Positions 2,352-37,458 of a DNA stretch of 38,317 nucleotides are shown piece by piece. A program made the translations under genes and the position numbers. The notes beneath the pieces were generated by a model. It was given only the letters and a program-made list of their open reading frames with translations. It was not told the origin of the DNA and did no database searches. This DNA comes from a virus: IMG/VR virus record IMGVR_UViG_3300009285_000031, positions 1 through 38,317 of that record; one strand, given 5' to 3'. Each line of letters opens with the position of its first letter. Within the stretch, counting starts at the first letter, position 1.

Positions 2352-3230
2352 ATGAAACCTGGAATTTATTACAATGTCCCGATGGAAGAGTACAAAAAAT
2401 GGCCTGGGGTGCACAAGTCGATGTTTCATTCAATTCTTCGGTCCGGGTTGCAATTGAAGCACGACACCGAAAACGAACCAGAGCCGACCGCCATCATGGT
2501 TTTCGGAAATCTGGTCGATTGCCTGCTGTTCGAACCGGCGCTTTTTTCGTCCCGGTACAAGCTCGCCCCAGATACATACCCGGCGATCGTAAAAAAGGTT
2601 CAGATCGACAAGCCGTGGAACTGGAACGCCAACTACTGCAAGGAGTGGCGCGACGAACAGCCGGAAGGCGTGGAGGTCGTAACCGGAGGAGAGCTTTCCA
2701 GGGCGTCGACAATCAAAAACAGGGTTTTAAACCACCCGGACGCCGGAAGGTGGCTTTTAAGGCCACAAAGACAGGTGAGCCTCTTCTGGGTCGATCCAGA
2801 GACCGATCTGCCCTGTAAGGGGCGGATAGACGCCTTGCCGGAGGATTTGAGCCGTATCGTGGACTTGAAAGTCACCGACGACCCGCTTCCGGGATCATTT
2901 TCCAGAATTGTGAACAATTTTTTGTATCACGCCGGAGGAGCGTTTTACCATGACGGTTTTTTCCTGGCGCAGGGAAAAGACCCGGGGCAGGGGCCGCAGA
3001 TACCGTTTTCTTTCATCGCTGCCGAAGCGGATGCCCCCTTCGACGTGGTGACATACGACCTCGGACCGGAGTCGTTCGACGCTGGACGCATCGCTTACCG
3101 CCATGCGCTGGCGCGATACAAAGAAATCACGGACTCGAACGAGTACTTGGGGTACTCGAATGTGACCGAAGAAATTGAGATCCCGCGGTGGGCGCTCAAC
3201 AGAATTCAGATGGAGGGAATAATCGAATGA
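2352..3230 (+). CDS. PD-(D/E)XK exonuclease, RecE-like (DUF3799-type).
   Basis: RBS GGAGGAG lies upstream. The motifs GNLVDCLLFEP and GRIDAL...IVDLKVT (D...D-x-K) fit the PD-(D/E)XK core, and the gene sits in a recombination module. Confidence 0.65.
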   Translation: MKPGIYYNVPMEEYKKWPGVHKSMFHSILRSGLQLKHDTENEPEPTAIMVFGNLVDCLLFEPALFSSRYKLAPDTYPAIVKKVQIDKPWNWNANYCKEWRDEQPEGVEVVTGGELSRASTIKNRVLNHPDAGRWLLRPQRQVSLFWVDPETDLPCKGRIDALPEDLSRIVDLKVTDDPLPGSFSRIVNNFLYHAGGAFYHDGFFLAQGKDPGQGPQIPFSFIAAEADAPFDVVTYDLGPESFDAGRIAYRHALARYKEITDSNEYLGYSNVTEEIEIPRWALNRIQMEGIIE

Positions 3231-3976
3231 ACACTCAAAACCTAGTAAAACCTGAAGTCGTGGAAAATGTTGAAAATCCTGTCGATCGCATCATGCTGGC
3301 CGTAGGGCTTGCAGGTCTCGGGGGTCCCGGGCAGATGAAAAAAGATTTGACCGAAAACCTTTCTATTCATCAGGCTGTAATCGATTTTGTAAACGAGCAT
3401 TTTGTCGAGGGGATAGATTACGGCAAGGGTGATCCACGGTCAGAAAAAAAATCATTGCTTAAGCCCGGAGCGGAAAAAATCTGTAAGGCGTTCAACACTC
3501 ACCCTCACTGGACTGTAGACAAAGATATGTGGGAGATCCTTGGACGCCCGACGAATACGGCGTTTTTTACCTGCCATATAATCCACAATGTAACCGGCGC
3601 TATCATTGGAGAGGGTCGTGGCGCATGCACAATCGGGGAGAAGTATAACGGGCAGCCGGCGCGCGATACGAACGGATCAATCAAGATTGCAAAAAAAAGG
3701 GCGATGGTTGACGCCGCGCTCGATGCCTTCATGTTGTCGGAGAGATTCACTCAGGATATGGACGAAATAAAATCTTTCATCGATGAAAAAAAGCTTCTTT
3801 ATGAAGCCGTCCAAAAAATGCGTTCAGGAATAAAATCGGATTTGACCGACAGTATGTTCATTCAAAAGGTGTGTTCTCAAACTATACACCAAAAATCAAT
3901 TTCAACCCGTAAGCAGCTGGAGATGGTGAACGAAGCCGTAAGCCTATACGATTTCGCAACCGGCGAAAAAAATTGA
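3227..3976 (+). CDS. Putative single-strand annealing or recombination protein.
   Basis: The start overlaps the exonuclease stop (ATGA) and the gene lies between the exonuclease and RusA. The segments LLKPGAEKICKAF and IKIAKKRAMVDAALDAF resemble annealing proteins. The call is mainly positional. Confidence 0.35.
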   Translation: MNTQNLVKPEVVENVENPVDRIMLAVGLAGLGGPGQMKKDLTENLSIHQAVIDFVNEHFVEGIDYGKGDPRSEKKSLLKPGAEKICKAFNTHPHWTVDKDMWEILGRPTNTAFFTCHIIHNVTGAIIGEGRGACTIGEKYNGQPARDTNGSIKIAKKRAMVDAALDAFMLSERFTQDMDEIKSFIDEKKLLYEAVQKMRSGIKSDLTDSMFIQKVCSQTIHQKSISTRKQLEMVNEAVSLYDFATGEKN

Positions 3977-4432
3977 ATGGATGTGAAAATTGGTGGGGCT
4001 GTAATGGACATTCTATTTACCGTTCCAGCGGTTCCGGTTGCGCAGCCAAGGCAACGGCACGCTATTGCAAAGGGAGGATTCATCACGAATTACACCCCGG
4101 CGGCGCATCCGGTAAACCAGTTTAAGGCGGCGGTAGGGTTCGCATCGAAACAGGTCTATTCCGGGCCTGTTTTGGATTGCGCCCTGTCGGTTGACATAGT
4201 GGCGGTTTTCCCAAGGCCGAAAAGCATGGTTAAGAAAAACAAGCCTATGAACCGGGAGTGGAAAAAGTCAAAGCCGGATATAGACAATATTGAGAAGAGC
4301 GTGTTCGACGCTCTGAATGGCGTACTATGGCGCGACGACAGTTTGGTATGCTCAGGAAGTACAATGAAATTTATCGCATCCGGAGAAGAACAGCCACATG
4401 TTGAAATAAGAGTTGTTTCGCTTGAAAAATAA
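3977..4432 (+). CDS. rusA: RusA-family Holliday junction resolvase.
   Basis: The motifs AQPRQRH, KPDIDNIEKSVFDALNGVLWRDDSLV and a size of about 140 aa are typical of RusA. The true start may be ATG 4004 (MDILF), which is preceded by GGTGGGG. Confidence 0.85.
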   Translation: MDVKIGGAVMDILFTVPAVPVAQPRQRHAIAKGGFITNYTPAAHPVNQFKAAVGFASKQVYSGPVLDCALSVDIVAVFPRPKSMVKKNKPMNREWKKSKPDIDNIEKSVFDALNGVLWRDDSLVCSGSTMKFIASGEEQPHVEIRVVSLEK

Positions 4433-4559
4433 TTGAAATAAATCTTGCACGATAGAATAATGTAGTGTATGTTACATAATATGAAAACAAAAACGTATTT
4501 CGCATAATGGGTGTTGGTTGACATATTGTTTTTCTTTTTGAGTTATAGGAGTTTGCGCT

Positions 4560-4796
4560 ATGTATTTAAACAGCGATGAGGTTCTTCAGGATGCTATCGA
4601 GCAAGGTTTAATAAAATTTGGTCGCAGAGGTTCAAATAAAGTTGCTGTGTGCTGTTCACAAAGTGTAACCGTAAGCATCGAATATGTTTTTGATCTATAT
4701 CGACGCGCAAACTCAGTCAATTTGGTAGAAAAACAAAACGATCAACCAACACAGGCAGTACGCAAGCCGGAGGAACCGGCCAGCGCACATGCCTAA
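4560..4796 (+). CDS. Hypothetical protein.
   Basis: 78-aa ORF with RBS TAGGAG. It follows a 127-bp AT-rich spacer that contains TTGACA. Confidence 0.45.
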   Translation: MYLNSDEVLQDAIEQGLIKFGRRGSNKVAVCCSQSVTVSIEYVFDLYRRANSVNLVEKQNDQPTQAVRKPEEPASAHA

Positions 4797-4847
4797 ACCG
4801 TTGGGCGAAATGCCCGTTTTGAAAACCATTTATTATAGGCGGCGACA

Positions 4848-5063
4848 ATGCAATCAATAGAACGTCGGTATATGAACGATCCTTTAATCCATAAATTGGT
4901 TGATTTGCTTACACAGCAAATTGACGAGCTTAAATTAACTCCGTCAGAGATAAGAGAGTGTGCCGTGTTGGCGGCAATCAACCATGAACGTAGAAGGCTG
5001 CCGCAGTATTTTGCGGAACAAAACGGGCACATCGCCCAACAGGCCGAGGTTGACATAACATAA
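4848..5063 (+). CDS. Hypothetical protein.
   Basis: 71-aa ORF on the same strand as its neighbours. Confidence 0.4.
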   Translation: MQSIERRYMNDPLIHKLVDLLTQQIDELKLTPSEIRECAVLAAINHERRRLPQYFAEQNGHIAQQAEVDIT

Positions 5064-5130
5064 TCACGTTACGGTCAACCATTGGCCGGGACGTTGTAGT
5101 CAATAACGCCCTCTGGAGATTGTAAGCGTA

Positions 5131-5844
5131 ATGAGAACATTTAAATTACTCGATCTTTTTTGCTGTGCAGGGGGCGCTTCGGCTGGCTATGCAAAAGCGG
5201 GGTTCGAATGCGTTGGGGTTGACATTAACAATCAACCGAGATATCCGTTTGAATTTCACCAGGCCGACGCCTTCGAGTATCTGCATCAATACGGGGAACA
5301 TTTTGACGTTATACATGCAAGTCCTCCATGTCAAAGATACAGTCAGCTTACTCCTAAAGAGTATCGCGGAAACCATCCTGATTATATCGACCTGATCAGA
5401 TCGGACTTACTGACACTTGGGAAACCTTACGTAATAGAGAATGTGCCAGGGGCAAGGGCATTGCTTAAAAGCCCGCTTATGCTTTGTGGAACAATGTTCG
5501 GGTTGCGTATCCGCAGGCATCGCTTTTTCGAAATAGTACCCAGGATAGCGCCCCCGCTTCTAGCTTGCGATCATACGTTTTATCCGGTCCTGATCTCTGG
5601 TACTCACAAGCGTAAAGGCGGGCGATTCGAGTATTCGGCACAATCGTGTCGTGATGCAAGTGGGCTACATTGGATGACTCGCAAGGAAATGGATGAGGCT
5701 ATACCGCCCGCCTTTACTTGCTTCATTGGAGAGCAGCTCGTTGCACAGTTGAATGTGGAGTCGGGCGTTACATGCCTACAACACAGTATAGCAGGCTCGC
5801 AAAGCCTCGGCCCAAATGCCGAAGCGGCACTTCTGCTATGCTAG
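5131..5844 (+). CDS. DNA (cytosine-5) methyltransferase, short form.
   Basis: Motif I LDLFCCAGGAS, motif IV ASPPCQRYS and motif VI YVIENVPG are all present. Confidence 0.85.
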   Translation: MRTFKLLDLFCCAGGASAGYAKAGFECVGVDINNQPRYPFEFHQADAFEYLHQYGEHFDVIHASPPCQRYSQLTPKEYRGNHPDYIDLIRSDLLTLGKPYVIENVPGARALLKSPLMLCGTMFGLRIRRHRFFEIVPRIAPPLLACDHTFYPVLISGTHKRKGGRFEYSAQSCRDASGLHWMTRKEMDEAIPPAFTCFIGEQLVAQLNVESGVTCLQHSIAGSQSLGPNAEAALLLC

Positions 5845-5847
5845 TCC

Positions 5848-5888
5848 TTGTACGCCATTTGTAAACCTTTGGAGATTGTAGGCGGCGC
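5848..5888 (+). repeat. Left arm of the long-range helix that brackets the radical SAM gene.
   Basis: TTGTACGC-ca-TTTGTAAACCTT-tggaga-TTGTAG-GCGGCGC is complementary to 6688-6728, segment by segment. Confidence 0.8.
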
Positions 5889-6749
5889 ATGAAAATCGCA
5901 AGAGTGTTCCCGGTACAAACAGCGGCCACGCCAGTGGATCAACTGGCATTTGTGGACTGCGAGCCTGGTCTATTCGCTCCAGAGGTTGACGAGGTACACG
6001 TAAGCGTGGCCTTCTCTTGGCACATGCAACGGGCCGAGCAGTTGGCCGAGGCCTGGTCGCACGTCGCGCCGGTGCAGATCGGAGGGCCTGCCTTCAACAA
6101 ACCCGGCGCAGCATTCGTGCCCGGTCGATATGTTCGTGCTGGATACACAATAACGTCGCGTGGCTGTCCGAATCGCTGCTGGTTTTGCTCTGTCTGGCAC
6201 CGTGAACCCGGCCTTTTGGAACTGCCGATTGTCGATGGTACGAACATTCTCGACGACAACCTGCTGGCATGTTCTGAGCGGCATGTACGCGATGTTTTTG
6301 CGATGCTATCGAGGCAGCGCGGGCGTGTGGAGTTTACGGGCGGACTTGAAGCTGCGAGGCTTCAGGCTTGGCACGTAGAGCTTCTCGCCAAGTTGCGGCC
6401 CGCTCAGATGTTTTTCGCGCTGGATACTCCCGACGATGAAGAGCCGCTCAGAAACGCCTCTCGTATGCTGCGGGAGGCCGGGTTCACGCGTCAACAGATG
6501 CGAGCATATTGCCTTATCGGGGGGCCACGCGACACGCTCGAACAAGCTGAGGTGCGGCTGCGCCTATGTGTCGAATTGGGCTTTTTCCCCATGGCGACGC
6601 TATGGCGCGACCAGAAAGGTATTACAGACCCGCAGTGGCGTGCGTTTCAACGTGAGTGGGCTCGGCCCTCAATCATCTATCGGAAATGCGCCGCTGAAAA
6701 CAGTGGAAGGTTTACAAACAGCGTACAACAGGCGCAGCTTGCAATTTGA
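5889..6749 (+). CDS. Radical SAM enzyme of unknown specificity.
   Basis: The CxxxCxxC cluster in TSRGCPNRCWFCSVW lies after an N-terminal domain of about 90 aa. The ORF is 286 aa. Confidence 0.8.
   Translation: MKIARVFPVQTAATPVDQLAFVDCEPGLFAPEVDEVHVSVAFSWHMQRAEQLAEAWSHVAPVQIGGPAFNKPGAAFVPGRYVRAGYTITSRGCPNRCWFCSVWHREPGLLELPIVDGTNILDDNLLACSERHVRDVFAMLSRQRGRVEFTGGLEAARLQAWHVELLAKLRPAQMFFALDTPDDEEPLRNASRMLREAGFTRQQMRAYCLIGGPRDTLEQAEVRLRLCVELGFFPMATLWRDQKGITDPQWRAFQREWARPSIIYRKCAAENSGRFTNSVQQAQLAI
6688..6728 (+). repeat. Right arm of the long-range helix that brackets the radical SAM gene. It lies inside the 3' end of the ORF.
   Basis: GCGCCGC-TGAAAA-cagtgg-AAGGTTTACAAA-ca-GCGTACAA is the reverse complement of the 7-, 12- and 8-bp segments of 5848-5888. 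Confidence 0.8.
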
Positions 6750-6792
6750 GTACAAACAGCAAGCGTGCTCCGGGACGTTATGCGGAAATAAT

Positions 6793-6929
6793 GGGGCTTT
6801 CCGATGGTTGTAGGCGGCGATGGGAACAGAGACCGGAGCATGGTGCTACCTCGGACCGGTGAGCATTACCGAGGGGATGTCGTCGCGTCGGCATCCAGCT
6901 TAGTCGCCGCTGAACACTATGGAGGCCCC
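6793..6929 (+). ncRNA. Candidate structured RNA (bracket-motif element A).
   Basis: The region has no ORF. It has an outer helix (6793-6801/6921-6929), TTGTAG (6808-6813), a 7-bp helix (GCGGCGA 6814-6820 / TCGCCGC 6904-6910) and TGAACA (6911-6916). There is an inner hairpin CCTCGG/CCGAGG (6849-6854/6869-6874). Confidence 0.5.
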
Positions 6930-7109
6930 TTTACGTTCACATAACACGCAAAGTAATCAATAGGCCCGGCCTGTGCCGATAGGGTTAACATGGCCGCACG
7001 GTAAAGCACTTAAGGTGGGCGTACTGTGACTCACGAGTGCCGGGCCTACAGCTTACATTTGCGAACACGTTAGGCGAAATAAAAAATATTTTTCAATTTT
7101 TGTTTCTTT

Positions 7110-7631
7110 ATGAAAATTATATTATTCATGGCAACATCTTTAAATGGAATGATCGCCGGCAAGGATGGCAACGAGGATTTTTTGTCGCACGCAAACTGGG
7201 AGTCCTTTGGCAAATTAGCTAAAGAGCATGGTTGTTTTATCATCGGCAGAAAAACATACGAGGCTGTTCAAAAATGGCCATATTATAATTATAACGATAT
7301 CGAAGCGAAACTAAAAGTAGTTGTTTCCACTGGCAAAGATTTAAAATTGGCACCACCATTTTTGGTTGTCAATTCGCCAAAGGGCGCTATTGAAAAAGCC
7401 GTTGCCATGAATTTTGAGAGCGCAATTCTTACGGGTGGAAGCACAATCAACAGTGCGTTTTTAAACGAAAATTTAATCGACGAAGTAGTGATAAATATTG
7501 AGCCTGCGATTGTTGGTTGTGGTATTCCTCTTTTTGCCGAGAAGGATATAAAAAAGCGTCTGACTTTTGTTGAGTCCGTAAGAATTGCCAATGATATATT
7601 GCAAGTTAAATATAAGGTGAACAAAATTTGA
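7110..7631 (+). CDS. Dihydrofolate reductase-family protein (RibD C-terminal domain type).
   Basis: The start MKIILFMATSLNGMIAGKDG, then IIGRKTYE, LTGGSTINSAFL..LIDEVVINIEPAIVGCGIPLF and a size of 173 aa are typical of RibD_C/DHFR-like reductases. The gene is visibly AT-rich compared with its flanks. Confidence 0.7.
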   Translation: MKIILFMATSLNGMIAGKDGNEDFLSHANWESFGKLAKEHGCFIIGRKTYEAVQKWPYYNYNDIEAKLKVVVSTGKDLKLAPPFLVVNSPKGAIEKAVAMNFESAILTGGSTINSAFLNENLIDEVVINIEPAIVGCGIPLFAEKDIKKRLTFVESVRIANDILQVKYKVNKI

Positions 7632-7676
7632 AAAATAGTTTGCCGAACTAAATTATAAACTTACGGGAGGCTTTTA

Positions 7677-8126
7677 ATGACACCAGCAGCATTATCCGCA
7701 TTGTTAAGTGGAGATATTGAGAACGCCATCATCGCATCAACACCGGGCGGCATCGAGGCGCAAGAGGCCGGTGGTCAACGTGACCTATGTACAAGTTCGA
7801 AGCTCCCTAAAATATTCAATGGTGGTAGCCGTTCCGAACTTGAGGTTATGGGAGTAGTGTTTGGTGAAGATTTCGATGACCTGTTCATAAATGTTACGTT
7901 GCCGCCCTCGTGGAAAATCGAGGCTACCGATCATAGCATGTGGTCTGATTTAGTTGACGATAAGGGGGAAGTCCGCGCAAATATCTTTTATAAGGCGGCA
8001 TTCTACGATCGGAGTGCGTTCATCAGCACCGTTCGGCAAAAGGATAATGTAGGGTCACCGGCCAACAATACACAACAAACGCTACACGCAAGCCCTGAAG
8101 GGACATTCGAAGCGCACGCCGGGTAG
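7677..8126 (+). CDS. Hypothetical protein.
   Basis: 149-aa ORF with RBS GGGAGG. Confidence 0.55.
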   Translation: MTPAALSALLSGDIENAIIASTPGGIEAQEAGGQRDLCTSSKLPKIFNGGSRSELEVMGVVFGEDFDDLFINVTLPPSWKIEATDHSMWSDLVDDKGEVRANIFYKAAFYDRSAFISTVRQKDNVGSPANNTQQTLHASPEGTFEAHAG

Positions 8127-8180
8127 CGTCGGACGTTGCAATTGTCAATTCACAATATTATAGTTTTTGGAGGCTGTTAT

Positions 8181-8381
8181 ATGTTTAAAATCGGCGATTT
8201 AGTCATACCAGTTACGAGGGAATGGGACAAGAAACGGTATACCGTGCTCGATGTTTTTGTGTCTGAAAAAAGCGGTGAGCGGTTAGTGCAAGTTGGTTTT
8301 ATCGGTAGTGTCGGCACTCCAATGGCTTCTTTAATAGATGAGCGGTTGTTTGAGGCCGCCCCCAAAAAAGAAGCTGAGTAA
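8181..8381 (+). CDS. Small hypothetical protein.
   Basis: ATG at 8181 is preceded by GGAGG. The protein begins MFKIGDLVIPV. Confidence 0.5.
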   Translation: MFKIGDLVIPVTREWDKKRYTVLDVFVSEKSGERLVQVGFIGSVGTPMASLIDERLFEAAPKKEAE

Positions 8382-8641
8382 TCTTGACAACAGCATACAA
8401 CAACCGTATGGCGTTCGTTTCACACATGCCGAAGCGGCACGTCGCCATACTTTTCCGTTTCCTGTAATAGCGGGCGAGATGAATCTGACGACGAAGGAGA
8501 CCGGCTAATGTGGAGCAAGGGTTCGAGACGTAATGGGAAATTTGTTTGTGGTTTTAACAGTTGCGCCTATCATAGTGCTGCTGTTAAGCGTAATAAGTGC
8601 TCACGGTATGATAAAGCCGAGGGCGACGATTGTTTTACCAC

Positions 8642-9117: not shown

Positions 9118-9414
9118 TTGAGAGACAAATGTTTAGATTTTTTGCGTGAAGCAAGAGCTGTTATTAGCGAAGAGCAAAGCTCGGGTACTCATAGTAGTCC
9201 GCAGGATGTAACATTAACCGCGATTGATACGGCAATTTTGTGGCGTTGTCACGATTTGCATTTCCGGGAACCAGTCGTGAATGAGAGCCTCGAGCCTTGG
9301 AGCGTTCGCAATAATCAAGTTAACAAACACTACACGCATGGGCCGATGCGGCCACGTTACAAAGTAAATTCTGAAGTTGTCGGCAAGAATTCAAACAGAA
9401 GACGCAAAAAATGA
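9118..9414 (+). CDS. Hypothetical protein (start uncertain).
   Basis: 98-aa ORF whose stop overlaps the NeuB-like start (ATGA). The only start available is TTG. Confidence 0.35.
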   Translation: MRDKCLDFLREARAVISEEQSSGTHSSPQDVTLTAIDTAILWRCHDLHFREPVVNESLEPWSVRNNQVNKHYTHGPMRPRYKVNSEVVGKNSNRRRKK

Positions 9415-10046
9415 CAAGGATTATAGCAGAAATCGGAAGCACGCACGACGGAAAGCTGGCGAACTGTATGAAGGCAATAGGCTGCGCTGCGGAGGCCGGC
9501 GTGCAGGATGTTAAGTTCCAGTTGTTGGAGAAGGAGCACGCCAAAAACGGGAACGTCTCAATCTGTCCATCGTGGCTACCAGAGCTTGTGAAATACGGTA
9601 GATCTTCCGATGTAAATGTTTTCGCTTCGGCATGGTCGTTGCAGTCTATCGTTGCACTTGCAGACTCGGGAGCGACATCGATAAAGTTTGCGTATTCTGC
9701 AAGATTGGAGCAAGGATTAATTGATACGGCGCAGACTCATTTTAAAGAAGTAATCGTTTCTTCCGACGTTATGACCGGCCCGCTACCGGGAGTAATAAAC
9801 CTGTTCTGCATACCGCAGTATCCTGTTTATTTCAAAGTCGATTTCGCCGAAATATTCAACGCAGGATTCGACGGGTTTTCCGACCATACTCTCGGAATCA
9901 ACCAAACCATCGACGCCATTCGGGCAGGTGCGCGAATTATCGAGAAGCACGTCTGCCAATGTCCCGGCAGCAAGTGCCCGGATGCTCGATTCGCAATATC
10001 GTGGGATCAAGTAAAGCTACTTAAGCGTGAGGCGGAATCGATATGA
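9411..10046 (+). CDS. NeuB-family nonulosonic acid synthase-like protein. It is short, with the TIM-barrel part only.
   Basis: The motifs IIAEIGSTHDG, AGVQDVKFQ and FSDHTLGINQTIDAIRAGARIIEKH are present. At 211 aa there is no room for the usual C-terminal SAF domain. Confidence 0.65.
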   Translation: MTRIIAEIGSTHDGKLANCMKAIGCAAEAGVQDVKFQLLEKEHAKNGNVSICPSWLPELVKYGRSSDVNVFASAWSLQSIVALADSGATSIKFAYSARLEQGLIDTAQTHFKEVIVSSDVMTGPLPGVINLFCIPQYPVYFKVDFAEIFNAGFDGFSDHTLGINQTIDAIRAGARIIEKHVCQCPGSKCPDARFAISWDQVKLLKREAESI

Positions 10047-10660
10047 AAATCCTTGTCATAGGCAGCGAGGGGTCGACAGGTAGGAGGTATTGCAAAATAC
10101 TGGAAGAGATGGGGATCTCGGTATTGAAGTACGACATCGAAGACGTGAAAAATCCGCTTCCAGGATACGACAAGGTGATAATTGCGACTCCAACGGAAAC
10201 GCATCGGGAGTATTATTATATGTTACCTAAAACTGAATGGCAAAACATTCTTATCGAAAAACCTGCGTTTTCAAAAATTCCAGACCTTATCGTAGGATAT
10301 ATGTATTCTGGCATTGAGGCGAAGATGGTCTGCAATTGGGCTTTCGTTTTTCACGATGAAATTCTTCAGCCCGGCAAGCATCTTGTTTTTTACGATTGTT
10401 CAAACCACGGAAAAGAAGGGTACTGGTTTGACACTTGCCAGTTACACATCCTTTCAAACGGGAGAGGAACAATTGCGGAGTCGGCGGATGCGTTCAATGC
10501 CTCGATTGACGACAAAGAGGTAACAAGGACGATGATCGAGGCATCCTATGTCCGAATGATTGATTCGTGGATTTATCGCCCGGAAGAGTTGTGGAACGTT
10601 CAGGATTTAATACCGGAACTTTCTTACATTATCCGAAAGCAGGAAATTGAAAATGGATAA
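10043..10660 (+). CDS. Gfo/Idh/MocA-like NAD(P)-dependent oxidoreductase.
   Basis: There is an N-terminal Rossmann start (MKILVIGSEGSTGRRY), then ATPTETH and ILIEKP (the EKP motif). Confidence 0.5.
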   Translation: MKILVIGSEGSTGRRYCKILEEMGISVLKYDIEDVKNPLPGYDKVIIATPTETHREYYYMLPKTEWQNILIEKPAFSKIPDLIVGYMYSGIEAKMVCNWAFVFHDEILQPGKHLVFYDCSNHGKEGYWFDTCQLHILSNGRGTIAESADAFNASIDDKEVTRTMIEASYVRMIDSWIYRPEELWNVQDLIPELSYIIRKQEIENG

Positions 10661-11216
10661 AAGCAAGTTCGTCGTCGGAATTCAGGTGCGTTCTACAAGC
10701 ACGAGATTTCCGGGAAAGTGCAGCCGGGTTATTAATGGAGCGGAAATGTGGAGAAGTATCTTTTGTGAATGCCGGAGCACCGGGATAGACTGCAGAATGC
10801 TCGTTCCGAAAAATGATAAGCTCGTTTCGGAACTCGAAATGTTCGACAAAGAATCTATAATCACCGGCCCGGAAAACTCCCCTCTTCAGAGGTTTCAAAA
10901 CCTGCTCGCGGCAAGCACGGCAAAAAATATCATCCGTATCACCGCTGACTGCCCGTTAATTGTATCGTGGATGATTCTTGACATGGCCCACCAGTTCGAG
11001 CGAGATAATCGAACGTTCATGTACAACGAACTTGACGGGGTGGACGTGCAGATTGCCAGCAGGAATATTTTCTTTTATCCTCGATATTTAGATGAAGAGC
11101 ACGTTTTCAACATGGAGAAAATAAAAGAGCACAGACTGTATACAAAGTGGGAAATGCACCTATCTGTCGATACTAAAGAGCAGTACGAGCATATCAAATT
11201 TATTACGGGAGGATAA
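10653..11216 (+). CDS. Cytidylyltransferase-family protein (SpsF / acylneuraminate cytidylyltransferase-like).
   Basis: IQVRSTSTRFPGK and IIRITADCPLI match the CTP-transferase type 3 pattern. The ATG at 10653 was preferred over the TTG at 10647. Confidence 0.55.
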   Translation: MDKSKFVVGIQVRSTSTRFPGKCSRVINGAEMWRSIFCECRSTGIDCRMLVPKNDKLVSELEMFDKESIITGPENSPLQRFQNLLAASTAKNIIRITADCPLIVSWMILDMAHQFERDNRTFMYNELDGVDVQIASRNIFFYPRYLDEEHVFNMEKIKEHRLYTKWEMHLSVDTKEQYEHIKFITGG

Positions 11217-12356
11217 ATGATTTTTGGAGGAGCGTCAACATTTTCGAAAATGCACTGCAATTATCCGGAGAATATTCCGGAGTCGATTACCAGATCAAGT
11301 GGCCAATTTTTAGAGTTCGATGATGGAAAAGACGTTTTCGACACCGTTTCCGCCCTTGGAGCACGACTGGTCGATTGCGAACCGTCGGGCGGAATGGTGT
11401 CGCTTCCCCATAAAAGCGAAAAGATTCTTGCTCGTATGCTTTGTGGACTTTTCCCATTTGTCGAAATGGTGCGGTATGGCTGCAATGGTGCCGACGCAAC
11501 TGAGGGTGCTATCCGATACGCGCGGGCGCACACCGGTAAAAAATACGTAATCAGTTGCGGATACCACTCCTGCCAAAGCGCGTTTACGATGAATACCCCT
11601 CCATCGCTCGGGTGTATTCCCGGGTACATCGTCCAGGCAAACGATTTTAATGCGGTGATAAAGCTGCTGAATGGAGTTGACAGCGATCTAATCAGGCACC
11701 CCGAAGGCGTCGCCGCAGTAATCGTGGAACCGGTAACGCTCGATCTCGATGTCAGAGAGCAGTTGGAGGAAATACGCTCAATCACGAAAAAAAAAGGAAT
11801 CGTTCTTATTTTCGACGAGATCATTACCGGGTTTCGAGTTCCGACGAGATCGATTTCAACATGGTACGGCATTGCCCCGGACCTTATCACGCTCGGGAAA
11901 GCGCTCGGTGGCGGGTATCCGCTATCGATCATAGGCGGCCCGCGCGCCATCATGGACAAGCCGGTGTTCCACTCGTACACGTTCGCAGGGCTTCCGACTG
12001 CTCTTAACAACGCGATAAATATATGCAATATCAGAGATGTTGAATTCATCGATTTCTGGGACCGTTCAGATAAATTCATGTACGACTTCAACAATCTACC
12101 TTTTGAAATAAAGCTGAAGGGGTACGCAACCCGCGGAGTCTGGACCGGCCCCGAAATCGTGAAGTTTATCTTCTGGCAAGAGATGTTCAAAAAAGGGGTT
12201 CTGCTCGGACCGGCGTTCTTCCCGAGAATGGGGTGGACAAAAGAAGAGTATGGGCTGTTGTTGCAAAAGTCAGTAGAAACCCTCAAAGAAATACGAGACA
12301 AAGAAATTTGTCTCGTCGGGAGAATGCCTGCATCAATTTTCAAGAGGAACTCATGA
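11217..12356 (+). CDS. Class III PLP-dependent aminotransferase (related to glutamate-1-semialdehyde aminomutase).
   Basis: The motifs IFDEIITGFRV and LITLGKALGGGYPLS (PLP lysine) are present. The ORF is 379 aa. Confidence 0.8.
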   Translation: MIFGGASTFSKMHCNYPENIPESITRSSGQFLEFDDGKDVFDTVSALGARLVDCEPSGGMVSLPHKSEKILARMLCGLFPFVEMVRYGCNGADATEGAIRYARAHTGKKYVISCGYHSCQSAFTMNTPPSLGCIPGYIVQANDFNAVIKLLNGVDSDLIRHPEGVAAVIVEPVTLDLDVREQLEEIRSITKKKGIVLIFDEIITGFRVPTRSISTWYGIAPDLITLGKALGGGYPLSIIGGPRAIMDKPVFHSYTFAGLPTALNNAINICNIRDVEFIDFWDRSDKFMYDFNNLPFEIKLKGYATRGVWTGPEIVKFIFWQEMFKKGVLLGPAFFPRMGWTKEEYGLLLQKSVETLKEIRDKEICLVGRMPASIFKRNS

Positions 12357-12649
12357 TGGAGAAATGGATTGAAGCCAATAAAGCGTTGCCCCGATCAGGC
12401 GAGCGTGTTTTAGTTTACGGAATAAAACTACATAAGGTTACGATAGCGTGGTATAGTGAATTCAAAGAATGGCATTCGTTTGACGTTGGCCACAACGACA
12501 AAATATGGATGTTGAATGATTTTATAACGCATTGGAAAAAACTCCCTACACGTCCAAATGTAAAATGCCCTCACGATACCATTTTCGTATCTAACAATAA
12601 AGACGTTGTTTTATGTCAAGATTGCGGTAAGCATTTTAAAAAGAAGTAA
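12353..12649 (+). CDS. DUF551-domain protein with a C-terminal zinc-ribbon-like CxxC.
   Basis: The sequence WIEANKALPRSGERVLVYG...ITHWKKLPTRP fits the DUF551 pattern. The start overlaps the upstream stop. Confidence 0.6.
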   Translation: MMEKWIEANKALPRSGERVLVYGIKLHKVTIAWYSEFKEWHSFDVGHNDKIWMLNDFITHWKKLPTRPNVKCPHDTIFVSNNKDVVLCQDCGKHFKKK

Positions 12650-12708
12650 AAAAGATATGAGAATAAAATTAGTTTCTGTCGATTCGAAAAACTATTCAAG
12701 AGGAACAC

Positions 12709-13134
12709 ATGAAGCATAAAATCAAGCTCACCGATGTTTATTTGTTCAATTATTCAGACATGTTACTTCTGTATGGGTGTCTTTCGGAACGACCAAAAGT
12801 TGCAAACATCAGTCACGACGGAAAACTTCCTAAATTTGGAGATCATGTCGCCTTTGTTGAAAGTAAGCCGTATCGTGAATGGTATATAATCAAGGTCATG
12901 GTTGACGGAACCTGGATGAGCTGCGGAAATGTTTACATTACGAAAAACAATGAGATCGGAATTTTCATCCTGAAGTATTACCAGCGACGAGGTATCGCCC
13001 TGTCGGTAGTAAAAAGAATATCGACCGGGAAAGAGGTTTTTGCGAACATCGCGCCGAAGAATTATCCATCGCAGAAGCTTTTCAAGAAACTCGGGTTCGT
13101 TCACATTCAAAATACGTACAGGCGGTCAAAATGA
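12709..13134 (+). CDS. GNAT-family N-acetyltransferase (putative).
   Basis: The acetyl-CoA motif A-like sequence YQRRGIALSVV and the C-terminal KLFKKLGF are present. The ORF is 141 aa. Confidence 0.5.
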   Translation: MKHKIKLTDVYLFNYSDMLLLYGCLSERPKVANISHDGKLPKFGDHVAFVESKPYREWYIIKVMVDGTWMSCGNVYITKNNEIGIFILKYYQRRGIALSVVKRISTGKEVFANIAPKNYPSQKLFKKLGFVHIQNTYRRSK

Positions 13135-14153
13135 ACTATTTCATTTCAGGCGGAACCGGAACCATCGGGAAAGAGCTGGTTTCTCAACTGTTGTCAAAGG
13201 AAAATCTACTTCACCCAACGGAGAAAATCGTCATCTACTCACGCGACGAGGCGAAGCAGGCGGCAATGGCTGAAACATTCCCGCCGGGAGGAGCGTGTGG
13301 CATGCGGTACATCGTCGGCGATATATGCGACTACGACAGGCTCGTCTACGGAATGGAGGGCGCCCATGTCGTCATTCACGCTGCGGCAATGAAGAGAATC
13401 GACGCCTGCGAATACAACCCGATCGAGAGCCTGCGCGTGAACGTGACCGGATCTCTGAACGTCGCCAGAGCATGTATCGAGTGCGGAGTAAAGCAGGCTA
13501 TTTTTCTATCGACCGACAAGGCGTGTAACCCGTGTTCTGCTTATGGCGCACAGAAGGCGGCGATTGAGCGTCTATGGATCGGAATGAACAACATGACATC
13601 GAAGACGTGCTTCAACGTTGCGAGGTATGGGAATGTCTTCGGGTCTCGTGGATCGGTCATCGATAAGTGGAAAGCTGCCGCAGCCGCCGGCAAGGCGCTC
13701 ACAATAACTTCAACAGAAATGACAAGATTTTTTTGGAATATCGATGAGGCCGCATCGTTCATTATCAACCGCGTTGCAGATGCGGGCAGGAATTTTGATC
13801 GCGGCCTCATCTATATCCCTAAAATGAAGGCGCAGAAAATCGTCGATGTCGCTCTGTCGATCGGAAAAGAGATCAACGTCGTCGGGTTGCGATGCCCGGA
13901 AAAAATGAATGAAGATCTCATCAGTGAAGTAGAAGGCATGAGTGGATACGACCAGGGAGATTTTTACATCATTTACCCGATGCAACACGATTGGGCTGCG
14001 GATATCGGGACGAGAGGTAAGAATTGCGAAGACGGGTTCAGGTTATCTTCGTCAATCAACACAGGAGAATTTTGCGACACAAAACAATGCGATTCGCGGG
14101 ATTGCGGTGTTTGCAAAGTGGGTTATGGTAGAATTTGCGATAAACGTACTTAA
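13131..14153 (+). CDS. Nucleotide-sugar 4,6-dehydratase of the PseB/FlaA1/CapD family.
   Basis: The motifs ISGGTGTIGKEL, VIHAAAMKRIDACEYNP, STDKACNPCSAYGAQK and ARYGNVFGSRGSVI are present. Confidence 0.85.
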   Translation: MNYFISGGTGTIGKELVSQLLSKENLLHPTEKIVIYSRDEAKQAAMAETFPPGGACGMRYIVGDICDYDRLVYGMEGAHVVIHAAAMKRIDACEYNPIESLRVNVTGSLNVARACIECGVKQAIFLSTDKACNPCSAYGAQKAAIERLWIGMNNMTSKTCFNVARYGNVFGSRGSVIDKWKAAAAAGKALTITSTEMTRFFWNIDEAASFIINRVADAGRNFDRGLIYIPKMKAQKIVDVALSIGKEINVVGLRCPEKMNEDLISEVEGMSGYDQGDFYIIYPMQHDWAADIGTRGKNCEDGFRLSSSINTGEFCDTKQCDSRDCGVCKVGYGRICDKRT

Positions 14154-28114: not shown

Positions 28115-29170
28115 TCAAAACAAGAGATGAAGTTTCCCGCCGACCGACTTTTCAAGCATCGACGGCATCCGTTTATACATGCAGAATATCTGCAGCGCGG
28201 ATTTTAAATCCATCTGCAGAATCTGTTTGATATTTCCCTCGTGATAGGCTCCCATGATTCCGCCTTCGGTCGCATTGATCCACAACTGAGGATTGTTCCC
28301 GGTCCCGCCGCACGCCATGAAGTCAAACCAGTTTTTAAATCCGAAATACGACTGCCACGTCCATACGCGGTTCCCGAAAACGTCAATCCATGGGATAACA
28401 CCGGAGAATTTCTCGTTGTACCAGCAATCCCAGGCGTGGAATTTGTGGTCGTATGAGAAACAGAGATCCATCCCGACAAAGATGGGGACCGAGCATCCGA
28501 GAATCGCCCTTGAAAAGTACAGCGCCGCACCCATCACGTTCCCGCCGACGTTGAAGCCCGGGACTTTCGAGATATCAACAATTTTGAAAATCTCCTTCGC
28601 AAGCTCTTCAGATGCGCACGGGGTGGTATACCACAAAATCGGACCTCTCCACCTTTTAATGAAATCCGGATGAGTCCCGTGGTACGCGACAAGCGTCCGG
28701 TTCTCCGTCTTCTGCCAGTACCAGTCAGGTGTGTCGGCGTGCGCTCCGCCTTCCGACATCTCTTTGATGCAGATGTCTCCGGCGTCAAGGATAAGGTAAA
28801 AATCATCAGGTCGCATCAGGTTGCGATCTTCCATGAACGGGAAGTTGTGAACATTCGTCACCATCCTGACATCCTGGCGCCCGATCGATCTGTCTCCGTC
28901 GCCGATAAGATCTTTCCAGTTTCTCGAAAGCGACGGACCCGCCCCTGCGAGGATAACCGGACGACCGGCGCAAGCCTCGAAAACCTGATACGCGCTATCT
29001 TTAATGAAATCATGGGTTCCGGAGTTCACCTTCGTCTGTTCAATCCACTGCTTTTCCCACGTCTTTACCGTAACCCCGTCATTGCGAACCGCATTGTTCC
29101 AGGCAGCCTCTTTGCCGAGAGGTATGCCCTCAATGTACGGGCTGTATTGCAGAGTCATTTCAACTTGCAT
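28115..29170 (-). CDS. Maf/DUF115 (MptE-like) family protein, a putative nonulosonic-acid glycosyltransferase.
   Basis: The motifs GRPVILAGAGPSLSRN, MRPDDFYLILDAGD and VGGNVMGAALYFSRAILGCSVPIFVGMDLCFS match the conserved blocks I associate with the DUF115/Maf flagellin-glycosylation family. Confidence 0.55.
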   Translation of the reverse strand: MQVEMTLQYSPYIEGIPLGKEAAWNNAVRNDGVTVKTWEKQWIEQTKVNSGTHDFIKDSAYQVFEACAGRPVILAGAGPSLSRNWKDLIGDGDRSIGRQDVRMVTNVHNFPFMEDRNLMRPDDFYLILDAGDICIKEMSEGGAHADTPDWYWQKTENRTLVAYHGTHPDFIKRWRGPILWYTTPCASEELAKEIFKIVDISKVPGFNVGGNVMGAALYFSRAILGCSVPIFVGMDLCFSYDHKFHAWDCWYNEKFSGVIPWIDVFGNRVWTWQSYFGFKNWFDFMACGGTGNNPQLWINATEGGIMGAYHEGNIKQILQMDLKSALQIFCMYKRMPSMLEKSVGGKLHLLF

Positions 29171-36526: not shown

Positions 36527-36617
36527 CACAACTTATTAACATTTTATTAACAAGTAGTCCACAAGTTATCAACGCACACCATCCTCTCAAATCGTTGTTA
36601 TTAACAAGTTACCAACA
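36527..36617. promoter_or_regulatory. Cluster of iteron-like repeats and palindromes (candidate origin or operator array).
   Basis: TTATTAACA occurs three times (36533, 36544, 36598). ACAAGTTAYCAAC occurs twice (36561-36573, 36604-36616). There is a palindrome TTGTTAtTAACAA (36595-36607). The sequences TTGTTCACA and TAGTCCACA resemble DnaA boxes. Confidence 0.5.
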
Positions 36618-36652: not shown

Positions 36653-36692
36653 GTTTTGTTAGCAAAAGTACCTTGTGTTTTGTTAGCAAAAG
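36653..36692. promoter_or_regulatory. Two direct copies of a 16-mer, GTTTTGTTAGCAAAAG, each with internal dyad symmetry (operator-like).
   Basis: The copies lie at 36653-36668 and 36677-36692. The second overlaps the putative -35 element. Confidence 0.5.
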
Positions 36693-36951: not shown

Positions 36952-36973
36952 CCACCAAGTCCCGGCGATCCGG
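36947..36973 (+). repeat. Copy 1 of a 27-bp repeat that spans the stop codon and a hairpin.
   Basis: AATAACCACCAAGTCCCGGCGATCCGG, compared with 37161-37187 (26 of 27 identical). Confidence 0.85.
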
Positions 36974-37165: not shown

Positions 37166-37187
37166 CCACCAGGTCCCGGCGATCCGG
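37161..37187 (+). repeat. Copy 2 of the 27-bp repeat. Here it forms a 7-bp hairpin, GTCCCGG-cgat-CCGGGAC.
   Basis: AATAACCACCAGGTCCCGGCGATCCGG. Confidence 0.85.
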
Positions 37188-37203
37188 GACATACTATACG
37201 AAA

Positions 37204-37391
37204 AATGGCGTTCTTTTAAATTGTAGGCGCGACGGTGCACCAGGGAAGTAGACGATCACGGATGCGTTATCACCGTAAGGGAGTATAGGTCTGCACCGAT
37301 CTACATGTTTCCGTAAGGTGGCTCGTAATGGCTCGGGCTATGTGATGCTACGTAGCGGGTGGTCGCGCTGAAAATAAGGAAGAACGCCATT
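37204..37391 (+). ncRNA. Candidate structured RNA (bracket-motif element B).
   Basis: It has a 12-bp outer helix (AATGGCGTTCTT 37204-37215 / AAGAACGCCATT 37380-37391), TTGTAG (37221-37226), a 7-bp helix (GCGCGAC 37227-37233 / GTCGCGC 37362-37368) and TGAAAA (37369-37374). Inner helices include GGTGCA/TGCACC. No credible ORF lies here. Confidence 0.55.
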
Positions 37392-37458
37392 CATCGTATA
37401 ACAGCCGCAAGTGTCAATTAAAACGTGCCACTGTGCGGCGTACACAGGAAGGAAAAAA

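Follow-up and report, generated by a model that had tools for sequence, protein, structure and literature searches.

Complementary arms around a radical SAM gene in a groundwater phage are probably the ends of an integron-like mobile cassette

Integron gene cassettes are delimited by core sites, GTTRRRY (R') at one end and the inverse RYYYAAC (R'') at the other, in which GTT and AAC are conserved, and the complementarity between the two ends of one cassette is the footprint of a G|TT crossover. Between R'' and the next R' lies the attC site, an imperfect hairpin of ~55-140 nt whose symmetric unpaired central spacer and extrahelical bases in the L'' arm set strand choice and orientation relative to the open reading frame (ORF). 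Clusters of attC sites lacking integron integrases (CALINs) are defined by having two or more equally oriented sites within 4 kb and no integrase in the vicinity. Here we compare such systems with a locus in the 38,317-nt IMG/VR record IMGVR_UViG_3300009285_000031 (positions 1 to 38,317; hereafter the window), which derives from a podovirus-like phage of groundwater origin. In this locus a radical SAM gene is bracketed by two complementary arms, and a first-pass annotation, made from the sequence alone, had proposed a new RNA processing or occlusion module without described relatives. We found that the bracket is probably the complementary end pair of a mobile gene cassette, one of an integron-like array in the phage early region without an integron integrase. 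The first report of attC clusters without an integrase in virulent phages, which often include methyltransferases, dates from 2023 and covered a handful of genomes (Qi et al. 2023, PMC9892861), and modular shuffling of phage genes by stem-loop elements called PeSLs has been documented (PMC2839356, PMC4122927).

The left arm reads TTGTACGC-ca-TTTGTAAACCTT-tggaga-TTGTAG-GCGGCGC at 5848-5888 and the right arm GCGCCGC-TGAAAA-cagtgg-AAGGTTTACAAA-ca-GCGTACAA at 6688-6728, forming helices of 8, 12 and 7 bp exactly as originally described, with the start codon ATG at 5889 and the motif GGAGA inside a 6x6 internal loop. A repeat search placed the arms at 5848-5890 and 6686-6728 and gave an inner helix of 9 bp (GCGGCGCAT/ATGCGCCGC) that includes the AT of the start codon. 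Measured between its cores, the cassette (W4) spans 5847-6729 on the plus strand, where all array features below also lie. Its left arm (5847-5890) consists of helix 1 (cTTGTACGC), a CA mismatch, helix 2 (TTTGTAAACCTT), a loop carrying the Shine-Dalgarno sequence TGGAGA plus TTGTAG, and helix 3 (GCGGCGCAT), and its right arm (6686-6729) consists of helix 3' (ATGCGCCGC), the purine-rich loop TGAAAACAGTGGA, helix 2' (AAGGTTTACAAA), CA and helix 1' (GCGTACAAC). The first base of the left arm is C where relatives carry G. One correction concerns the gene itself: the radical SAM ORF (5889-6749; 286 amino acids with CxxxCxxC, assigned to phrog_9298) crosses the right arm and stops in the linker 20 nt past it, and the right arm is therefore coding. 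The linker between W4 and the next cassette (6730-6776) is a hairpin, GCGCAGCTTGC...GCAAGCGTGC.

To compare this bracket with others, radical SAM relatives were fetched from viral, genomic and metagenomic collections (L numbers denote the fetched loci). Nucleotide homology to nine contigs started exactly at position 5848 in seven of them, including L048 (92% identity), L050, L052, L053, L054 and L016, and ended in six at, or shortly after, the AAC at 6729 (6719-6744) and in three at the next GTT (6779-6787). Flanks beyond the homology were unrelated and neighbouring genes differed; by tblastn, no neighbouring gene of the window adjoined the radical SAM homologues elsewhere. The GTT was joined to at least six different upstream contexts and the AAC was followed by at least five different linkers: the linker seen in the window travels with the cassette in L016/L052 and L050, and different ones occur in L048, L049, L051, L053, L054 and L055. 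Because homology stops at the cassette ends and the neighbours differ, these alignments indicate that the ends are exchange points. The brackets are thus better described as the ends of portable DNA cassettes with integron-type GTT...AAC cores than as an RNA module without relatives. For the left junction we considered, and rejected, an AAC|GTT palindrome or a duplication of 3 bp, since the window reads GGGAC, ACC or CAC before GTT.

Inverted ends around a portable segment would also suit a small DNA transposon or a family of miniature inverted-repeat transposable elements, a reading that the same comparisons make very improbable. The arms differ between copies except for GTT and a few positions, no transposase was found, and the elements stand head to tail in ordered arrays. 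The first-pass annotation was right to argue against transposase-type inverted termini; it had also held that presence or absence of the segment exactly at the bracket, with target-site duplications, would refute its own reading and indicate a transposon. Such presence or absence at the bracket is what the homology edges show, with no target-site duplications at the junctions.

Several side observations concern the portability of the radical SAM gene. In L049 (~1190-1245), a cassette with 87% amino-acid identity has its right arm intact and its outer left arm swapped for unrelated sequence, with homology beginning at window position 5875; this is a naturally broken bracket. Homologues without a bracket, at ~50-58% identity, were common among the fetched metagenomic contigs, and in L027 a gene for a DUF5131 (Gp37/Gp68-type) protein (3125-3784) precedes the radical SAM cassette by ~1 kb.

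The architecture of the bracket was read in each cassette by aligning the left arm with the reverse complement of its own right arm. In contig L001/L024, serial genes carry CGTT-N6-(A/C)ATT-helix on the left and helix'-AACA-N6-AAC on the right, with a short imperfect hairpin between genes, and the same plan was found in ~29 cassettes from at least eight viral or metagenomic contigs. Helix 1 is 9 bp in all brackets; of 27 cassettes, 26 have the GTT and all 27 the AAC. The core consensus is GTTRKNY, with a purine at position 4 in every one of the 27 and a pyrimidine at position 7 in 25. Inward of helix 1 comes a 2x2 mismatch, in which the left A at position 11 is invariant and stands opposite C in 24 of 29 brackets, followed by a helix 2 of 9-12 bp whose sequence differs from cassette to cassette. 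The left strand of the internal loop carries the Shine-Dalgarno sequence TGGAG, or TTGGAG, TTGTAG or TTATAG immediately before helix 3, and the right strand carries RGGAW. Helix 3 is GC-rich (GCGGCGC and variants) and lies at or over the start codon in most cassettes; in some, such as L024 12603-13090, the real start, with a Shine-Dalgarno sequence of its own, lies ~20 nt downstream of it. A small cassette stands in tandem duplicate in L025 (3967-4141 and 4296-4470), its arms identical.

Pairing in the bracket is under selection, as had been proposed, both from the fit of each arm to its partner and from compensatory changes among homologues. Across 27 unrelated cassettes, a left arm matched its own right arm far better than those of others, the scores being, for helix 1, 5.19 versus 2.99 of 6 positions and, for helix 2, 9.30 versus 3.74 of 11. 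Many two-sided changes were seen among ten homologous radical SAM brackets, for example TTTGTAAACC/GGTTTACAAA to TTGCGAAAAC/GTTTTCGCAA or TTTGCACAC/GTGTGCAAA, and helix 3 changed from GCGGCGC/GCGCCGC to GCAGCGC/GCGCTGC and to GCGCAC/GTGCGC. These changes were counted on end-anchored arms, a MAFFT alignment of concatenated arms having placed helix 2 wrongly in three rows. Different cassettes translate the right arm in different frames, all three being used (10, 8 and 4 cassettes), with the stop codon beyond it in 17 of 22 ORFs, and the constraint therefore acts on nucleotides and not on the peptide.

The arrangement TTGTAG-N7...rc(N7)-TGAA within 2.5 kb is indeed far from chance, occurring three times in the window compared with a mean of 0.01 and a maximum of 1 in 300 dinucleotide shuffles. 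The other two brackets noted in the first-pass annotation are present, one at 6808-6916 with the inner helix GCGGCGA/TCGCCGC and one at 37221-37374 with full arms at 37195-37233 and 37362-37400, yet the count of three in the genome fell short: the window has at least eight brackets, most of them without TTGTAG. A strict scan for TTGTAG-N7...N7'-TGA gave no match beyond the window in the 15 related loci fetched first, and the TTGTAG/TGA core is therefore not the conserved feature. Homologous brackets carry TGGAAC, AGAAAC, GGGAGC, AGGAGA or ATGAAAA where the window has TGAA(A/C)A, so the helix with G.A and A.G pairs suggested for TTGTAG/TGAAAA is left without comparative support. As TTGGAG takes this place in sister cassettes (such as GATTGGAGGCGGCAATG in L024), TTGTAG is most simply read, from this alignment, as a decayed TTGGAG ribosome-binding site. 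Inspection also led us to reject k-turn, hammerhead and C/D-box readings of TTGTAG/TGAAAA, since the spacing is unsuitable and the 3' half lacks conservation. Exact matches of the 17-mer GGAGATTGTAGGCGGCG in IMG/VR were confined to the same contig family and to chance matches within coding sequence (EIVGG peptides).

Six consecutive GTT...AAC brackets with hairpins between them occupy 4513-7649, W4 being one of the six, and more junctions occur at 8137 and at 36.9-37.4 kb. The window thus carries at least eight gene cassettes at ~4513-8400 plus a degenerate mini-array at ~36.9-37.46 kb. Like integron cassettes and CALINs, these stand head to tail on one strand, have GTT/AAC cores, pair their own 5' end with the inverse core, are separated by hairpins favouring the bottom strand, carry methyltransferases, lack a phage integrase and contrast in GC content with their neighbours (38% in W6 compared with 58% in W4). 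The at least six junctions in 4750-8137, all on one strand and with no integrase among the ORFs tested, correspond to the definition of a CALIN. At most junctions the linkers are imperfect hairpins of 45-125 nt resembling attC sites, and for 14 of 18 linkers the bottom strand gives the better fold, as it does for seven of nine authentic attCs.

Three authentic arrays served as controls: the class 1 array in phage P1 MH445380, the validated attC cluster of phage TJE1 and a chromosomal integron fragment of Vibrio anguillarum. In the class 1 array the GTT end of each cassette pairs with its own inverse core over 8-12 nt and no further (GTTAGCGCCCA, GTTAGACATCAT, GTTGGGCG, GTTAGATGCCA); in TJE1 the pairing covers 8 nt, and the Vibrio fragment has no extended bracket. 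Own-end pairing in the class 1 and TJE1 controls therefore makes helix 1 ordinary integron-cassette behaviour. What is unusual here is the inward extension of the pairing to ~45 nt, comprising the A.C mismatch, helix 2, a Shine-Dalgarno bubble that is purine-rich on both strands, and helix 3.

A number of findings weigh against the integron-like reading. Helices 2 and 3 and the purine bubble are absent from all three authentic arrays, so any role for them at the DNA level is proposed here by extension. Core position 5, where integrons have a purine, is G or T, and a purine in just 11 of 27 cassettes. In the linkers, the loop beside the core is 1x4-5 where authentic attCs are symmetric (9 of 9), and single-base bulges fall on the 3' arm of the coding strand in 13 of 17 linkers but on the 5' arm in all nine authentic attCs, so that, with respect to the ORF, they lie on the other arm. 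The bracket has an exchange point at each end and the hairpin can be missing, neither of which is predicted by the textbook single G|TT crossover; a junction in L048 (~1245-1280), for example, has no hairpin and reads AAC-agcc-GTT (GCACCTAAC-agcc-GTTGTACGCC). Fold energies of the brackets show no strand preference (the top strand is better in 9 of 20), which cannot separate RNA from DNA. Finally, the ORFs tested in the window included no integron integrase, and none was detected near the related arrays. A complete integron would have beside its array an attI site and the integrase IntI, which carries an extra helix and recombines attC as a folded bottom strand. A single tyrosine recombinase lies close to an array (L024 6944-8131); it matches Pfam Phage_integrase and no integron-integrase family model, and its sole NCBIfam match is the archaeal XerA model, at 31 bits compared with a cutoff of 220 bits. 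From these matches it is a generic phage integrase, and neither that array nor the one in the window qualifies as a complete integron. The window array is best classed as one that works like an array of integron cassettes without being a canonical member, since it departs from attC in two defining features and no integrase is present. As a separate observation, the hairpin-less L048 junction resembles a double-stranded simple site, with two inverted arms and a 6-bp centre.

We considered whether cassettes could be swapped without any dedicated recombinase, the leaders, trailers and hairpins serving as portable patches of homology for phage recombination or slippage, in the manner of PeSLs or lambdoid boundaries, with the resemblance to integrons a coincidence. 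A PDDEXK nuclease, RusA and further early recombination functions adjoin the array, relatives encode Cas4-like and VRR-NUC nucleases, and no dedicated integrase is present. Linkers and brackets also reassort independently, with linker families shared by several contigs, and PeSL shuffling supplies a precedent (PMC2839356, PMC4122927). PeSLs in T4-type phages resemble the present cassettes in that small accessory genes of hyperplastic early regions are shuffled as modules with conserved stem-loop flanks. They differ in consisting of a local promoter and a stem-loop and in recombining by homology, whereas the cassettes here have no promoter each, have stems that span the whole gene and end in GTT/AAC, and so do not qualify as PeSLs. 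A single exchange position (5848) recurs in six independent contexts with less than 10 nt of shared sequence, which is too short for ordinary homologous exchange. Together with the near-invariant GTT and AAC and junctions that, unlike those of PeSLs, are promoter-free, this leaves recombinase-free shuffling a rather improbable account.

A cassette runs from the GTT core to the AAC core, and the 9 bp of helix 1 are the pairing of its own two core sites. For this anatomy the integron-like reading suggests the following mechanism. In single-stranded DNA the long stem would loop out the gene and bring the two crossover points of the cassette together. The enzyme behind the exchange would most likely be a host tyrosine recombinase, of integron or Xer type, that works on folded single-stranded DNA; a second option would be template switching at the base of the stem. 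A partial parallel is the attP of CTX-type phages used by XerCD, where distant inverted segments of single-stranded DNA likewise anneal into a recombinase site bearing mismatches, although there each element has one site, for chromosomal integration, with no cassette array, and the sequences here are not dif-like. The bubble, finally, may exist because the transcript forms the same pairing and the ribosome-binding site has to stay open.

An alternative is that the brackets work primarily at the RNA level, as RNase III-type processing stems, translational insulators or closed loops in a polycistronic early RNA, with mobility just spreading the module. All cassettes do lie on one strand behind one promoter-like site (TTGAAA-17-AATAAT, 4433-4461, a consensus match only, just upstream of the array), and no plus-strand terminator-like sites were found within 4300-8600. 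Plus-strand promoter-like sites are found upstream of the array (4401-4508) and beyond that only as weak 9-of-12 matches at 7628 and 8136, their number equalling the shuffle expectation. Helices 1 and 2 together (~22 bp) have the size of an RNase III substrate, and the position of helix 3 at or over most start codons would suit an RNA-level module, as would the absence of helices 2 and 3 from authentic integron cassettes. The Shine-Dalgarno sequence always lies in the internal loop opposite purine-rich RGGAW and hence cannot pair, an arrangement that makes sense only if the stem also forms in the transcript. The resemblance to rRNA processing stems and the early RNase III sites of T7 is that a ~22-bp stem with internal loops brackets a unit in a polycistronic transcript. 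The differences are that here the 3' arm is translated and the stem edges are DNA exchange points. Ribosomes would have to melt the stem in most cassettes, given that 17 of 22 ORFs stop beyond the right arm, and an RNA-level role fits poorly with those helices 3 that, as in L024 12603-13090, lie well upstream of the real start. Rfam, which the first-pass annotation had suggested consulting, returned no family at gathering thresholds in the whole window and, around the brackets, only chance-level matches at E values up to 10.

The substitution patterns bear on the same choice. Transition mismatches in helix 1 are of the A.C type in 12 cases and of the G.T type in 3. Because of this A.C excess, the conserved A opposite C at position 11 and the bottom-strand preference of the hairpins, the evidence near the core leans to folded bottom-strand (antisense) DNA, in opposition to an RNA module. 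At the inner edge of helix 2, T.G pairs usable on the sense strand only are frequent (39 versus 11), as an RNA structure would have it, but under a stricter count the excess disappears (8 versus 6) and these pairs sit on conserved motifs. For the inner part of the bracket the evidence on DNA versus RNA is thus mixed. Since an RNA module alone would also leave the GTT/AAC cores and the exact homology edges unexplained, we regard it as unlikely to be the main function. An RNA role of the two inner helices, in processing, insulation or the coupling of termination to re-initiation, is possible. Our own reading is that the structure is primarily a DNA feature of mobile cassettes and that the bubble is a concession to translation.

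A further step, which we take tentatively and consider rather less probable than its opposite, would be to recognize a class of integron-like cassettes not described before, residing in phage early regions that have no integrase. In such a class a three-helix clamp of ~45 bp would hold the gene in its loop, the outer helix serving as recombination core and the inner helices and bubble as a folding and expression unit, with hairpin polarity inverted relative to bacterial integrons. Against the few genomes in which virulent-phage attC clusters had been reported, the window adds a clean array of at least eight cassettes with anti-restriction genes and a radical SAM cassette found, inserted at the same base, in at least six different contexts. 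None of the three authentic arrays checked showed the gene-spanning stem, the conserved A.C mismatch, the Shine-Dalgarno bubble or the inverted hairpin polarity. These features offer mutable handles on cassette excision without a resident integrase and on one structure serving both recombination and expression, and they bear on how ORFs become packaged as cassettes. If short cassettes such as that at 6777-6945 are a near-empty chassis, the family could show how genes become cassettes, an open question for integrons; if the inner helices are incidental, the locus amounts to one more good instance of an already known type of phage accessory-gene array.

The remaining cassettes of the main array are as follows. 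W1 (4513-4750; GTTGGTTGA...TCAACCAAC) surrounds an ORF of 78 amino acids (4560-4796); its termini, GTTGGTTGA/ATCAACCAAC, recur on other L024 cassettes, with a one-base variant in L025 (GTTGGTTAAC/GTCAACCAAC). The attC-like hairpin that follows (4751-4799) folds at -28.2 kcal/mol on the top and -37.7 kcal/mol on the bottom strand. W2 (4800-5040; GTTGGGCGAAATGCCCGTTTTG/CAAAACGGGCACATCGCCCAAC) surrounds an ORF of 71 amino acids (4848-5063) and has the inner module TTATAGGCGGCGA-ca-ATG; its linker hairpin (5041-5092) has a 1x5 first loop and a single-base bulge in the 3' arm. W3 (5093-5782; GTTGTAGTCAATAACGCCC/GGGCGTTACATGCCTACAAC) carries a C5 DNA methyltransferase (ORF 5131-5844) and is separated from W4 by the hairpin AGTATAGCAG...CTGCTATGCT (5783-5846). 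An exact-protein look-up of the methyltransferase returned the source contig alone and no population variant.

W5 (6777-6945), which contains the second of the noted TTGTAG brackets, reads GTTATGCGG...GGGGC...TTGTAGGCGGCGA...TCGCCGCTGAACA...GCCCC...CATAAC. Its 27-amino-acid ORF (6820-6903; MGTETGAWCYLGPVSITEGMSSRRHPA) fills the space between the arms exactly, from the inner left to the inner right arm; it had no homologue in the fetched loci and may encode a micro-protein or have arisen by chance in a cassette that is nearly empty. Over its first 10 nt (6777-6786, GTTATGCGGA) W5 is identical to the start of a TJE1 cassette (L128 ~1066-1075, GTTATGCGGACG), an identity that may be due to chance or to a common core-site preference. 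A long linker hairpin (6946-7068; arms 6950-6970 and 7039-7059) ends before a canonical GTTAGGC, where W6 begins (7069-7649), an AT-rich bracket with arms at 7083-7104 and 7620-7641 around a RibD_C/DHFR-like ORF (7110-7631) and with no hairpin after it. A further linker (8074-8136), 74% identical to the linker after a cassette in L004/L027, is followed by GGAC|GTTGCAATTG at 8137, and the array therefore extends to ~8400. Apart from one linker, BLAST of the remaining window cassettes against all fetched loci gave no homologues.

The second array looks like a decayed one. Two copies of the hairpin repeat CCACCARGTCCCGGCGATCCGG lie upstream of the third bracket, one at 36952-36973 after ...AAATAAC and one at 37166-37187 directly upstream of it, and they look like degenerate cassette junctions; CCACCARGTCCCGGCGATCCGG and AAATAAC come after two small ORFs. 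The third bracket (37193-37402) reads acTATACGA-aa-AATGGCGTTCTT-ttaaa-TTGTAG-GCGCGAC on the left and GTCGCGC-TGAAAA-taagg-AAGAACGCCATT-ca-TCGTATAAC on the right, and is a degenerate cassette with its left GTT mutated to ACT. The linker hairpin after it (CCGCAAGTG...CACTGTGCGG, 37403-37445) is 78% identical to the linker upstream of the L051 radical SAM cassette.

Cassette cargo in the window and related loci includes C5, MT-A70 and Dam-type methyltransferases, Lar, radical SAM and DHFR-like proteins and many small ORFs; being mostly anti-restriction, it fits an anti-restriction accessory region. Small cassette ORFs in L016 (947-1217), L050 (419-655), L056 (654-881) and L122 (446-850) run beyond the right arm into long linkers, which are coding and supply Cys-rich tails; the L122 ORF encodes a Lar-type restriction alleviation protein.

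The phage itself, whose source is a metagenome contig of 38.6 kb from groundwater, encodes a P22-type portal and large terminase on the minus strand, and its plus-strand early genes include a Lin1244-type protein as well as the PDDEXK nuclease and RusA. Megablast of both bracket regions against 50,697 phage records gave zero matches, and by this search the phage is without a close relative among deposited phages. ARAGORN found no tRNA or tmRNA. A biosynthesis block at 9411-14153 and 28115-29170 encodes a NeuB-like protein, a cytidylyltransferase, a class III aminotransferase, a GNAT protein and a PseB-type Polysacc_synt_2 dehydratase, which suggests a nonulosonic-acid pathway of the pseudaminic or legionaminic type; an MptE-like protein is encoded among the late genes. 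Phage TJE1 likewise encodes a nucleotidyl transferase, an epimerase and a glycosyl transferase. Finally, the divergent late/early intergenic region contains two pairs of exact direct repeats, TTATTAACAAGT (36544-36555 and 36598-36609) and GTTTTGTTAGCAAAAG (36653-36668 and 36677-36692), which may be operator or iteron sites.

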